DNA of 64,000 nucleotides. Origin: Eledone cirrhosa. Taxonomy: Eukaryota. The position numbers were made by a program, and so were the translations under genes. The notes below the pieces were generated by a model that was not told the origin of the DNA, ran no database searches, and was given only the letters and a program-made list of their open reading frames with translations. Below are positions 11,054 to 57,811 of this stretch, in pieces (within the stretch, counting starts at the first letter, position 1; every line of letters starts with the position of its first letter). The stretch is taken from assembly GCA_964016885.1 (NCBI GenBank), contig OZ024750.1:46066001-46130000 (forward strand), written 5' to 3'.

Positions 11054-11116
11054 ATTCCATTATACATATTTCAACGACACCAATTTAAATTAGGCTGTGC
11101 TTTCATCAGATAAAAT
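11054..11116 (-). ncRNA. Type I hammerhead ribozyme motif (family B)
   Basis: Minus strand: ATTTTAT CTGATGA aagcac...gtgtcgtt GAAA TATGTA TA ATGGAAT. Confidence 0.75.
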
Positions 11117-12949
11117 ATAATATAGATCAGTTTTATAAATAAATATTGACATACCCTTAAAGAATGCAACCATTGCTGTTGGAAGCTCCTGGATATATAT
11201 ATATGCATATATATATATATATATATATATATATATATATATATATATATATGCACACACATATGTATATATGTATACATATATATATATATCACTTTTG
11301 GTTGCCCGTGTCTCTCTCTCTCTTTCTCCTGTCTATGCGAGAGGCATCACGATTATACCAGCTCTGAGTCGTAGCTGACCACCAGGCTAAAGTCTCCCAT
11401 GTTGGTCACAACTTACTTTCCCTATTTTTCCACAGTTACTCTTTTGCATGTTTTTTTCACCTGTGTCTTCCCACGATGGGATCTGTACTCTTTTTTTTCT
11501 TCTATTCCTTTTCTATTTTTCCCCTTATTCCTCGCTCCTCATCTCCCCCCCCCCCTGTCCTTCTTCCTTTCCCTCTCTTTCCTTTTCTCTTTACTTTTTT
11601 TCTCTCTTTCTCTCTCCCTTTCCACCTGGCCTTTTGATTGATAAAAGTCCTCGGGCGCACCCGGACTACACCGATGTCCTGTAATTCAGCGCCGAAACAT
11701 CGGTTCGGCATACATTTACAGCTGACGATGGAAACTCTTTTCTTCCTTTCTTCCCCTGTTCCGCCCTAACCACCACCCTAAACCTTGTTTTTAGTAACCA
11801 CTGCTCCTTTCGTTGCATAACTTTATATATATATATATACATATATACATATGTGTATGTTAAACAACTTCTTGTGAGTTAGTTGTTTAAGAAAAACAAG
11901 AAATAAATAGTTAAAATACAATCGTGGTTGATTTCAGATTTAAAAGTAGAGATCAGGAGAACGTGAGATAAGGAGAAAGAAAACACACAAATGTATGTAT
12001 ATAAATATGGATGTATGGATGTGTGTATATACATGTATCTATGTATGAATGTATGTATGTATAGGTGCGTTGTTTACAATTTCTTATCAATTTCACTCAC
12101 ACTCAGCAAATGTATATATACATATATATATATATATATATATATATATATACATACATATATATATATATGTGTGTGTGTGTGTGTGTGTGTCCGTGTG
12201 TATGTGTGTATATACATATATATAATATATATAATATATATAAAATATAATATATATATATATTATATATATAATATATATATTCACAAGCACACATATT
12301 TTATATACATCTACAATTATGCCGAAAGCGTTATTCTTCAACTTGTGAATCCGAAAATCTAATAATATTCCAATTGCCTGCCTGGAGGTATTTTCCCTCG
12401 GAACTAAACATGGAATTCCTTGCGGTGTTTTTGTCCACCCTTACCACCTCTTTCCTCTCGCTTCAATTCGCTCTTTATATTTCGCTCTCTATTTAACTCA
12501 ATCTCTCCTCTTAATTTGGACATTACGCTGAAACGAAAAGTATAAATAAGCGGAAATGTTCGCAAAACATTAAAATATTTGACAATACACAAACACACGC
12601 ACACACACACATACACACACACAACCACACAGCCAGTCACACACACACACACACACAAATATATATATTTATATATATATATTTATATATATATATATAT
12701 ATATATATATATATATATATACATATATATATGTGTGTATGCGTATTTATATTTGGATGTGTATGTAGCTTTGCGCTAGTGTGTTGGGGCATGTGTGTGT
12801 GTATATATGTGTATATGTATATATGTGCATATGTATATATACATAAAAATGTGTCTCTGTGTGTTCGGGTGTATTGATGTGTAAATCCAATAGTGCATGA
12901 GTGTATATATGTGCATATAATATATATATATATATATATATATGTATAT

Positions 12950-13147
12950 AACGAAGGAGGTGTGGTAAGGAACCAGATGGACCATAACGCACCAGAGTAA
13001 TCAATACTTAGGATAGTAGAGTGGGTAATAGGAACAAGTATGACCCCGACGGCAGAGCTCTAGCCGTTTCGACGGCTAGTTCTGGACGGGTCCAGAAATA
13101 GCCGTCGAGACCGCTTGAGCTCTGCCGTCGGGGTTAAACTTTTTCCT
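12950..13147. mobile_element. Family H fold-back element with GC-rich hairpin and HHR 3' half
   Basis: Arms ACCCCGACGGCAGAGCTC...TTCTGGA / TCCAGAA...GAGCTCTGCCGTCGGGGT; flanked by (TA)n; homologous to copies at 39950, 46367, 57636. Confidence 0.75.
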
Positions 13148-13967
13148 GTATATATATATATATATATATATATATATATATATATATATATATATATATA
13201 TATATGTATATATATATATATATATATATATGTATATATATATATATATATATATATATATATATATTAATATATTTACAAACAAATAATTAAAATACCC
13301 AAGATAAACAAATAAATAGTATGTTTGATTATTTCTGTGTAAAATCAATAATTTAAGTGGATAAATACCTTGCCGTCTCATAAAAAGCTTCTTACTTTTC
13401 AATATATATATATATATATATATATATATATATATATATATATTATATGTCTGTGTTTTCTGTGACTGTGTGTATGTATGTGTATGTGCTTATATATATG
13501 TATATATATATAAAAGCACATACACATACATATACATATATACACATACATATACTATACAAACACATACACATACATACATATACATACATACACATAT
13601 ATATATATATATATATATATATATATATATATATATATATAGTTAGATGATTTACATTTCAGCCCAAGGTAAATTCAATTACGGTCAGGTGTGTAATGGA
13701 ATATGTCGGGCAATTAATTTGAGAATTGATAAACGCACAAATTCCAAGTGCCCAGAAACAACAACAACAACAACAACAATAATAATAATACCAATAACAA
13801 TAATAACAACAATAATAAAATCACCACATTATCTGTGAAAATTAAACCTGTAAATAAAACTATAAAGCAACAACTACAAACTGCATGTTTAGTACAGACC
13901 AAACATGGCGTACGTTCGGTTTCCCCTCCTTATATCAAATAAATAGAGGGGGAATTATATATATATA

Positions 13968-14915
13968 TCTTTGTGTGTTTGTGTCCCTGTGTGTGTGTGT
14001 GTCCCTGTGTGTGTTTGTGTCTGTGTGTGTGTGTGTGTGTGTCGCTGTGTGTGTGTCGCTGTGTGTATATATGCCTGTGTGTATGTGTGTTTGTGTCCCT
14101 GTGTGTGTTTGTGTCCCTGTGTATGTTTGTATCTGTGTGTGTGTGTGTGTGTGTCGCTGTGTGTGTGTGTGTGTGTCGCTGTGTGTATTTGTGTCCCTGT
14201 GTATATATGCCTGTGTGTATGTGTGTTTGTGTCCCTGTGTGTGTTTGTGTCCCTGTGTATGTTTGTATCTGTGTGTGTGTGTGTGTGTGTGTCGCTGTGT
14301 GTGTGTGTGTGTGTCGCTGTGTGTATTTGTGTCCCTGTGTATATATGCCTGTGTGTATGTGTGTTTGTGTCCCTGTGTGTGTTTGTGTCCCTGTGTATGT
14401 TTGTGTCCCTCTGTGTGTGTGTGTGTCGCTGTGTGTGTTTGTGTCCGTGTGTGTTTGTGTCCATGTGTATGTATGCCTGTGTGTTTGTGTGTTTGTGTTC
14501 CTGTGTGTGTGTGTGTGTGTATGTGTGTGTTAGTGTATATATATGTATGTGTGCCTGTGTTTGTGTCTGTGTCTGTATATTTGCCTCTGTGTCTGTGTGT
14601 GTGTGTATGTGTATGACTGTGTGTGTGTGTGTGTGTATGTTTGTGTCCATGTGCTTATATGTGCCTCTGTCTGTGTGTGTGTGTTTCTGTGTGTGTATAT
14701 GTGCTTCTGTGTGTGTGTGTATATGTTTGTGTCTGTGTGTGTATATGTGCCTCTGTGTGTGGGTATGTGCATGTGTGTGTTTGCCTCTGTGTGTGTGTGT
14801 TTCTGTGAGTGTATGTGTGACTCTGTGTGTGTATATGTTTGTGTCTGTGTGTGTATATGTGCCTCTGTGTGTGTGTGTATGCGTTTGCCTATGCGTGTGT
14901 GTGTATGTGTGTGTC
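13968..14915. repeat. Degenerate (TG)n array with higher-order duplication
   Basis: Direct reading. Confidence 0.9.
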
Positions 14916-56281: not shown

Positions 56282-56438
56282 TGTTTCTACTTTAGGAACA
56301 AAGCCAGCAATTACCCGGTGCATTACTGGTACTTTATTTTATCGACCCCGTAAGGATGAAAGGCAAAGTCAACCTCGGCGGGATTTGAACTCAGATCGTA
56401 AAGGGACGTAACTATGCTGGAAAGCATGGTGTCTGACC
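56282..56438 (-). mobile_element. SINE, 5'-truncated, TSD AAAGATAAC
   Basis: SINE core; 9-bp flanking duplication. Confidence 0.85.
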
Positions 56439-56900
56439 TTAAAGATAACGTTGAATTCTTATAGAAAGTCCGGCATATGGCCGCATGGAAACACACCACA
56501 TCCAAATACCCTATCTTATTGAGATGATAAACAGGCGGGTAGACCTCAGAGATGCTCTGCTCAACGGTTGTATGTGAGAAGCTCTATGATTAAAAAAACC
56601 TTTGTATATTACATACAGAATTGTGATTGCAAGTCCGAGACATCTGACATTTAAGAGCACCAAACTGTAAGGGGCTGAGTTGAGACAGGCTCAATAATCG
56701 CATGACTACTGAAAACCATCCAGCAATAAAGTAACACTGGGTATAACATTTAAACCAACTCCTATATTATCTGACTCAATCCATCCAACAATCGTGGAGG
56801 AAGTTCTGGAATGTCTAACATCATTTACAACACACCTACCTAGGCTGAAGTTAGAGGGGTGTCGGTTGGCAGAACATTTCTTGGGAGAGAGCAATATTAC

Positions 56901-57021
56901 AGAAGAAGAAGAAGAAGAAGAAGAAGAAGAAGAAGAAGAAGAAGAAGAAGAAGAAGAAGAAGAAGAAGAAGAAGAAGAAGAAGAAGAAGAAGAAGAAGAA
57001 GAAGAAGAAGAAGAAGAAGAA
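56901..57021. repeat. (GAA)n microsatellite
   Basis: Direct reading. Confidence 0.95.
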
Positions 57022-57635
57022 TATATATACATATACATATATATATATGCGTCTATACAATTATGTATGTATATTTCATACCTCTCGCTCTGTTGACGAA
57101 GGCCAGGTATTAAGCGACGAAATCCTAAGATACAATACAACAAGCTATGTTTATTCAATTCTTTTCTTTCACCAAGTCCCTCTATACTGTTATCCCCAAG
57201 AAACCCCTGAAATACTCCTTGTTTATCGTCCCTGCACAAGAGATCTTCATAACTACATGAGAGATACGTAGATCGAATAATATAAACGTATAAATTAGAA
57301 TGATAAAACCATCATCACTAAATGTAGAATCAGGGGTGAAATGCGGATGCTCTAAAAGTATGGACATATCAATCCTATCCATTAAAAGGTACGCCATATC
57401 CAGGGTTATTTTCAAACCAATCAATATATGAAAACATTACAGACATCGTATGGCATCTGAGTTTGTTCATTGTATTGAAATAACTATCAAAATATTTTCA
57501 TACTAAAATCAGTGAATACTTTGTTTGATGCTTTGGAAAGTTTATCTGCCGGCCTAAAATTGTGAATATTCTCTCCGCAAAATTCTATGTGCTGAATGTA
57601 TATATATATATAAATATATATATATATATATATAT

Positions 57636-57811
57636 GTGGACCATAACGCACCAAAGTACTCAATACTTAGGGTAGTAGAGTGGGTAATAGGAACGAGTAG
57701 GAACCCGACGGCTGAGCTCAAGCCGTTTCGACGGCTAATTCTGGACTCAGAGTCCAGAATTAGCCGTCGAAACGGCTTGAGCTCAGCCGTCGGGGACCTA
57801 CTCGTTCCTAT
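57636..57811. mobile_element. Family H fold-back element, 61-bp arms (57687-57747, 57751-57811)
   Basis: ATAGGAACGAGTAGG...CTGGACT cag AGTCCAG...CCTACTCGTTCCTAT. Confidence 0.85.

Follow-up and report, generated by a model that had tools for sequence, protein, structure and literature searches.

Penelope-like element hammerhead motifs in the TA repeats of the Eledone cirrhosa genome

We analysed a 64,000-nucleotide, AT-rich window of the 3.0-Gb genome of the octopus Eledone cirrhosa (OZ024750.1, positions 46,066,001 to 46,130,000) and found hammerhead-ribozyme motifs in short islands bounded by (TA)n repeats, a kind of motif that is present in more than 100,000 copies in the genome. The islands almost certainly represent hammerhead motifs derived from Penelope-like elements (PLEs). 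We consider it probable that they are mostly end-pieces, from the pseudo-long terminal repeats (pseudo-LTRs) of several endonuclease-bearing PLE families inserted in (TA)n, and that these stubs arose as complementary DNAs (cDNAs) when copying of uncut element RNA ran off at its capped 5' end. Hammerheads of PLEs residing in TA repeats, with inverted pairs and a one-sided tail, constitute an already published class; less ordinary here are the motif density and the anatomy of the stubs.

Hammerhead motifs in the window and in the genome

Reading and scanning of the islands identified 22 type I hammerhead-shaped motifs in eight families (A, B, C, D, E, G, H and I; Table 1), close to the approximately 20 motifs in approximately eight families proposed in an initial annotation of the window. 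The core order is C-G-S with an NUH site, and the core is canonical in 14 of the 22 motifs, of the U3-A8 type in two, point-changed in three and CAGAAGA in the three family H motifs. Twelve motifs are clean, having an intact CUGANGA/GAAA core and a helix I of at least 4 bp, while two family D motifs with an intact core have a helix I of only 2 bp followed by a mismatch; a type III arrangement or a long-range helix I was sought by eye for this family and none was found. The two U3-A8 motifs belong to family G and have a helix II of about 100 nt, one of them (35482+) with one helix III mismatch. Family H keeps CAGAAGA in place of CUGANGA in 22 of 24 copies with all three helices intact, which may represent either a natural U4A variant or a dead core that is still spreading. 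All five helix III palindromes named in the initial annotation are present, but helix III is not palindromic in families D, F and H. Computed duplex energies favour an intermolecular helix III (-10.5, -10.0 and -1.7 kcal/mol for A, G and E, respectively) with no hairpin. The window additionally contains half copies, comprising six arms of a ninth family, F, two of B, one of G and one of I. All six F arms are the 3' hammerhead half alone, and this applies to the island at position 57,811, where the annotated series of motifs had been taken to end. Two decayed hammerhead-like cores (9955-10002 + and 47858-47923 +) lie outside the 22, and eight matches to an early guess at the F core proved to be joints rather than cores. 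Our initial descriptor, which lacked an extra base before helix II, missed motifs that have that base. Rfam hammerhead families gave no window match at the gathering score, and at E<=10 there was no hammerhead among the 150 matches listed of 624, a list dominated by TA-repeat microRNA models.

All 23 sites checked sit between (TA)5+ runs, in islands of 135 to 1,971 nt. The islands had been described as non-coding, which does not hold at 40.5-42.5 kb, where remnants of reverse transcriptase (RT) and endonuclease lie inside TA islands. Elsewhere in the genome, (TA)6+ occurs within 250 nt downstream of 41 of 52 dispersed matches versus 18.6% of control positions, and (TA)6+ makes up 12.9% of the window versus 5.7% of the genome sample.

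A strict descriptor matched the window eight times, compared to a mean of 0.04 and a maximum of one in 100 block-dinucleotide shuffles, and a widened descriptor matched 13 times (mean 0.67 and maximum four in 30 shuffles). As the descriptor was tuned on the window, the independent test is a set of 54 stretches of 10 kb elsewhere in the genome, in which the strict descriptor found 87 matches in 540 kb versus zero to two in 10 shuffles, the separation from shuffled DNA that the initial annotation had anticipated. At least one match was present in 29 of the 54 stretches, two arrays supplied 34 of the 87 matches, and helix III was self-complementary in 70. These sampled matches include 23 distinct helix III inserts, some of them forming a long hairpin helix III, and many further families. 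The dispersed rate of 1.02 per 10 kb corresponds to about 305,000 motifs genome-wide (bootstrap 207,000-421,000), a rough extrapolation because the sample positions were preset round numbers and not random. The window, with 1.25 strict matches per 10 kb, is not unusual in this respect, so the density highlighted at first is large genome-wide but not a peculiarity of this locus. Exact patterns matched 80,112 times for A and B together, 23,465 for C, 4,117 for G and 3,964 for E, with no match to the reversed pattern in any case; the sum of 111,658 is a lower bound equivalent to at least 37 complete motifs per Mb. Hammerhead-shaped motifs are genuinely present, in more than 100,000 copies, and the very large census predicted for the genome is borne out. 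The 3' half of family F matched 34,856 times (reversed control 0), whereas a pattern for the full F hammerhead matched only 26 times, an undercount as many copies read differently after the core, so that the two numbers do not form a valid ratio.

The expected covariation was also observed: across 16 chosen motifs, compensatory changes occur at 12 of 17 pairs, a number reached in none of 500 shuffles and not in slid controls, which scored lower, although the motifs were chosen by a pairing descriptor and the result is biased toward the positive. Among the first 100 of the 4,117 family G matches, the core is C3-G8 in 84 and U3-A8 in 16, with no other combination.

Families and their links to PLE coding DNA

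Six of the nine families (A, B, D, E, F and G) are linked to PLE coding DNA, consistent with the original proposal that the islands are truncated or non-autonomous products of several TA-targeting PLE lineages. Extension of the motifs led, as had been envisaged, to RT and endonuclease open reading frames (ORFs), in full elements for A (locus L059) and D (L110) and in joined coding DNA for B, E, F and G. A DNA search with family A returned 19 matches, one of which (L059) runs into an ORF and has the order pseudo-LTR, 2.4 kb of RT and C-terminal endonuclease, 3' untranslated region (UTR), pseudo-LTR and (TA)n. This ORF contains one stop and one frameshift and encodes the motifs HSDKT and RLRWI and an endonuclease of the form CNLC..E..N..CLH, with no CCHH. 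For family B, a 464-aa RT frame (L144) that is 56% identical to the family A RT is located upstream of a B motif (L143) on the same strand. In the full family F hammerhead, helix I is C-rich, the core mostly U3-A8 or C3-A8, helix II long and helix III a 6-bp hairpin, with GUC as the putative cleavage site; it is placed before or after Hydra-like ORFs (L109, L155); its protein carries HSDKT and RLRWR as read by eye. The DKT and RWK motifs are readable in A and F, the K of RWK differing in both, and the B and G sequences did not cover the N-termini. A CxCX5C linker is present in F (L109, by eye), partial in G and degenerate in the A copy, and one of 20 family G loci (L230) has a Hydra-like endonuclease, CRLC..E, upstream. 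Overall, families A, B, F and G look like members of the Hydra clade.

Families D and E appear Neptune-like, E on the basis of one partial ORF. The family D protein has 28,629 genome candidates, of which 150 were scored and all showed 97-100% identity. An open 1,217-aa frame lies between two pseudo-LTR copies at L110, with a C-X4-CxxC linker followed by YIGET and, further on, His residues; its domains are assigned by motif. One of 20 family E loci (L257) has a Neptune-like endonuclease start upstream. The family D ORF (L109-L111) includes a long asparagine-rich stretch, and similar inserts are known in rotifer Penelope (PMC3846280). A second family of at least 13 copies has the last bases of the D tail in common and forms short fold-backs of its own.

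Family C consists of arrayed non-coding units of 420-470 bp, each carrying a single type I hammerhead. One array comprises 22 units of 468 bp between TA runs and has an inverted arm; another continues as units of about 420 bp through all 30 kb examined. We found no ORF link for C, and no ORF for H or I in the window, a genome-wide search not having been made for these two. Family C fits non-LTR retrozymes, and only C, H and I look non-autonomous, likely being non-coding units mobilised in trans. Most islands read as stubs of autonomous PLEs rather than as the guild of separate mini-elements first pictured.

Anatomy of the stubs and their possible origin

Each family mapped has two fixed 3' ends, at +107 and +175 in A, +103 and +186 in F and +257 and +305 in D. 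Forty-five fold-back pairs of families A, B and F consist of 37 short plus long arms, two short plus short, five with one unresolved end and a single long plus long pair, which spans two neighbouring islands. The 5' stops are similarly family-specific. In family F, 29 of 30 unselected arms are without CUGANGA, 42 of 66 arms begin between +39 and +47, most often on the A of TCAGT, and of 57 pattern-picked arms in the initial 15 Mb of one chromosome, 41 stop no more than 17 nt from the anchor. Family A arms stop at -69 to -71 (17 of 26), family G arms within 10 nt of the core (12 of 22, by eye) and family H arms at the A of TTAGT (6 of 24, four of those with a G in front, by eye); family B arms often stop near one A, although these were not counted. 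Breaks in the contigs of run X2 fall on F +39 (36), F +43 (66) and the two 3' ends (124 and 255), and the summed depth of this run, which is not a copy number, falls several hundred-fold from the A pseudo-LTR into the ORF. Inspection by eye of the first 100 of 7,543 symmetric F joints revealed a non-templated G beside the stop in 16 (five ambiguous) and an A in four (two ambiguous). The extra G is present on both arms at four loci among these 100 and in the window island at 57696-57802. The base before the family A stop is G in 42, T in 42 and A in 16 of the first 100 of 4,215 (by eye). Arms starting at the predicted cut site number 0 of 40 in A and 2 of 21 in F, one of the two being a mutated copy. 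In summary, the arms terminate at an initiator-like A particular to the family, at times with an additional G, rather than at the predicted site of ribozyme cleavage.

These features can be accommodated if transcription started from an initiator inside the upstream pseudo-LTR and if the element protein nicked both (TA)n strands and started reverse transcription at two internal RNA sites, as another PLE does in vitro. The start sites would be present near the 5' end of the RNA as well as near its 3' end, so that copying would in most cases cover no more than about 60-260 nt before running off at the cap, at times with addition of a G, and the two cDNAs would then join head to head via short matches. 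Priming of such 5' copies from both nicked ends would account for the size, asymmetry, fixed stop and extra G of the stubs. The hammerhead is likely a low-activity processing signal, dimer- or protein-assisted, that is carried along, and a family F start inside the hammerhead would leave the 5' copy with half a ribozyme, unable to cut itself. By extension, the stubs could be a genomic record of PLE reverse transcription, each fold-back representing one double-primed event in which each target end starts at its own internal RNA site and runs off at the capped start; we judge the chances of this stronger statement to be even.

Several observations weigh against the run-off origin. Pfam recognised no family on five full-element ORF pieces, so the RT and endonuclease assignments depend on visual identification of motifs and on one weak RVT_1 match (E 0.005). 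The 3' and 5' ends were mapped with one reference, which may miss longer arms of other subfamilies, and run X2 may be from the source sample and in that case not independent. Fifteen of the 57 pattern-picked F arms run through the whole hammerhead, 80 of the 100 symmetric F joints continue with a templated T or C and the stop is not a single base, and many of the G and T residues next to the family A stop are explicable by the other arm, short matches or (TA)n. Families D and E have no comparably sharp stop and none of 22 listed E copies is a fold-back. The initiator consensus and the copying of caps by retrotransposon RTs enter as general background.

The main alternative retains the PLE origin and attributes the fixed 5' stops to hot spots at which the RT pauses or jumps template while copying from the 3' pseudo-LTR, because of structure in the RNA, short palindromic sequences or self-priming from an antisense template. 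The F stop does lie inside helix II, the A stop falls on a CATATG palindrome at which 4 of 26 A arms join exactly, stops are spread across several bases, and palindromic inverted joints have been taken as self-priming in an earlier study (PMC3846280). However, a pyrimidine-A step marks the stop in A, F, G and H irrespective of its position relative to the ribozyme (upstream, internal or at the edge), symmetric joints with a G on both sides occur repeatedly and none of the 26 full F copies has a G at that place, and one TA-flanked A copy (L053) begins at the stop with a G and has no partner arm. We regard hot spots as possible but clearly less probable than run-off at the cap. It is improbable that the islands are instead self-propagating retrozymes, that is self-cleaved and circularised RNAs copied by the PLE machinery. 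This would suit the family C arrays (22 x 468 bp; units of about 420 bp over 30 kb) with their 23,465 exact matches, the 371-bp tandem of family H and the large excess of pseudo-LTR pieces over ORF starts in summed contig depth, but A, B, D, E, F and G run on into PLE coding DNA, arms do not begin at the cut site, and stubs with a single motif cannot yield cut-to-cut monomers, most F stubs lacking half the core in any case. Lastly, the ease with which AT-rich palindromes pair, the absence of Rfam matches at the gathering score and the near absence of helix I in D could suggest chance matches or palindromes resembling miniature inverted-repeat transposable elements without a ribozyme, which is highly improbable overall and, as regards a chance origin of the sequence motifs, refuted at the sequence level by the shuffles, reversed-pattern controls, covariation, restricted G cores and ORF links.

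Two further kinds of joint were observed. A family G arm stands head to head with a common short interspersed element (SINE) end through an identical joint in six places (L235, L239, L240, L241, L242 and L248), which may reflect the joint insertion of two different RNAs or a preference for this target. Islands of mixed family or subfamily, such as a B arm attached to an F tail, occur at L211, L009, L126, L134 and L139 and suggest template switching or two RNAs.

Window features, known systems and significance

Table 1. Hammerhead motifs and PLE remnants in the window (window positions; motif labels give position and strand)
Feature	Positions	Strand	Motif	Class
Family B type I hammerhead, complete; predicted cut after 11061	11053..11116	-	11109-	clean
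Hammerhead core, block order site-GAAA-CUGA (type SGC-like, not type I)	11670..11730	+
Family F fold-back, two hammerhead 3' halves, no CUGANGA	13037..13140	.
Family D copy, G8 to A	17804..17852	-	17845-	point change
Family E minimal hammerhead, ACGU helix III, helix I 4 bp	18092..18134	+	18099+	clean
Family I hammerhead, 96-nt helix II, palindromic helix III; ends approximate, from core position	19108..19238	-	19230-	clean
Family C hammerhead, ~422-bp tandem unit, retrozyme-like	24773..24818	-	24811-	clean
Family C hammerhead, second tandem unit	25195..25240	-	25233-	clean
Family G hammerhead, helix II 94 nt	35205..35332	-	35325-	U3-A8
Family G right arm, mismatch in helix III	35475..35611	+	35482+	U3-A8
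Family B-type hammerhead, complete; half copy opposite at 37271-	37046..37111	+	37053+	clean
Family B hammerhead, left arm of fold-back island 39503-39928	39643..39707	-	39700-	clean
Family B hammerhead, right arm of fold-back island 39503-39928	39808..39872	+	39815+	clean
F-related 3' half	40027..40068	+
Family D PLE, 5'-truncated: broken RT, C-terminal GIY-YIG-type ORF, 3' UTR, hammerhead core, tail	40559..42496	+
Family D hammerhead core; helix II good, helix I weak	42188..42236	+	42195+	intact core, 2-bp helix I
Family A hammerhead, complete, left arm	42700..42766	-	42760-	clean
Family A hammerhead, right arm, G8 to A	42881..42950	+	42887+	point change
Family H motif, hairpin helix III, inverted arm	43365..43415	-	43410-	CAGAAGA
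Family H motif, first of two 371-bp tandem units	43713..43763	+	43718+	CAGAAGA
Family H motif, second 371-bp tandem unit	44084..44134	+	44089+	CAGAAGA
Family G copy, C3-G8 core, A15.1 changed; half copy opposite at 44997-	45095..45229	+	45102+	point change
Family F 3' half inside fold-back island	46501..46542	+
Family A hammerhead, short-ended arm, island 46577-47001	46614..46683	-	46676-	clean
Family A hammerhead, long-ended arm, island 46577-47001; pseudo-LTR as in full element at L059	46809..46878	+	46816+	clean
Family C hammerhead, partial tandem	55452..55497	-	55490-	clean
D-related copy, core intact, helix I weak	56073..56121	-	56114-	intact core, 2-bp helix I
Family F fold-back; both arms end on same A, each plus extra G	57696..57802	.

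A short inverted copy of the family D PLE end adjoins the truncated family D element on its upstream side. The family I motif belongs to a TA-bounded island of 1.2 kb (18914-20154) with direct repeats about 1 kb apart, one holding the full motif and the other a 3' half, and with no ORF of 100 aa inside. The motif at 11670-11730, of which a 7-bp helix III and a 6-bp helix I are readable, is a single copy among the loci examined; it has its block order in common with type-SGC hammerheads (Eckert et al., 2023, PMC10085705). Other repeats in the window include a 5'-truncated long interspersed element (21499-23460 -) whose RT and C2H2 zinc-finger frame is open (Pfam RVT_1, 5e-31) and which adjoins a (TA)n array, and broken non-LTR retrotransposon pieces at 8157-9239, 49482-50704 and 51187-51684 (RVT_1 and zf-RVT, the last piece without a Pfam match). 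A fold-back element with long inverted ends, in which no hammerhead was found (52100-52560, also at L144), is possibly a DNA transposon derivative. Satellites at 1-663 and 58373-60736 have units of 93 bp (seven copies, 98% alike) and 12 bp (197 copies).

Minimal type I hammerheads of metazoan PLEs lie in pseudo-LTRs, mostly singly and from truncated PLEs, and include opposite-strand pairs 100-700 bp apart, a U3-A8 variant, a small palindromic helix III, an extra base before helix II and, in Drosophila virilis, a case with a 2-bp helix I; their activity as dimers is low (Cervera and de la Pena, 2014, PMC4209133). The pseudo-LTR location, prevalence of single copies from truncated PLEs, opposite-strand pairs, U3-A8 variant, palindrome, extra base and 2-bp helix I are common to the motifs described here; numbers differ, being about 2,000-9,000 per genome there and at least 111,658 exact matches here, and neither the helix II of about 100 nt (G, I) nor the family-wide CAGAAGA core (H) was met in the parts of that study compared. 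The Hydra clade of PLEs with a C-terminal endonuclease (EN+), which includes Hydra-1_Obim of Octopus bimaculoides (Craig et al., 2021, PMC8557442), resembles our elements in several respects. These are a short single ORF with DKT and the RW motif, CxxC and CxH flanking E and N, canonical hammerheads, insertion into (TA)n, and a tail on one side together with an inverted, 5'-truncated copy. Few families are described there, as opposed to at least four here with thousands to tens of thousands of stubs each, and the E. cirrhosa elements differ in a tail of about 70-100 nt rather than 30-40 and in their fixed 5' stops.

Poseidon PAc, from another clade, likewise has an AT-rich target and an ORF starting within or just after the pseudo-LTR, and in vitro it uses two internal RT start sites that correspond to the tail ends, extends both target strands and accepts uncut RNA as template, its hammerhead cutting only with protein (Frangieh et al., 2024, PMC11167929). 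The parts of that paper compared do not discuss genomic stubs arising by run-off at the 5' end of the RNA. Transcription starts inside the pseudo-LTR in Penelope and in Chlamys (PMC2377424, PMC8557442). Metazoan non-LTR retrozymes resemble family C as low-GC non-coding tandems of 420-470 bp with one type I hammerhead each, but the family C arrays differ in ending in (TA)n with an inverted arm (PMC7229834; 10.64898/2026.07.22.740005). A term search of the main text of a 2026 octopus repeat annotation found no mention of ribozymes (PMC13282606). A search of the open literature, which did not extend to subscription papers, returned neither a census of hammerheads in an octopus nor a description of PLEs copying the cap.

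The axolotl genome is far larger than the 3.0 Gb of E. cirrhosa. For axolotl retrozymes, copy numbers as high as 120,000 have been reported (Cervera and de la Pena, 2020, PMC7229834; Li et al., bioRxiv 10.64898/2026.07.22.740005). With at least 37 complete motifs per Mb by exact match, the present census is among the densest in the papers compared, and its copies offer extensive natural data on the construction of pseudo-LTRs and inverted ends by PLEs and on whether the hammerhead is used. Base-level predictions for the start sites of the element RNAs follow from the stub stops. If the stubs are indeed a record of double-primed reverse transcription, hundreds of thousands of copies would map the transcription start site, both RT initiation sites and the cap for each family, and would explain how pseudo-LTRs and inverted ends are made.

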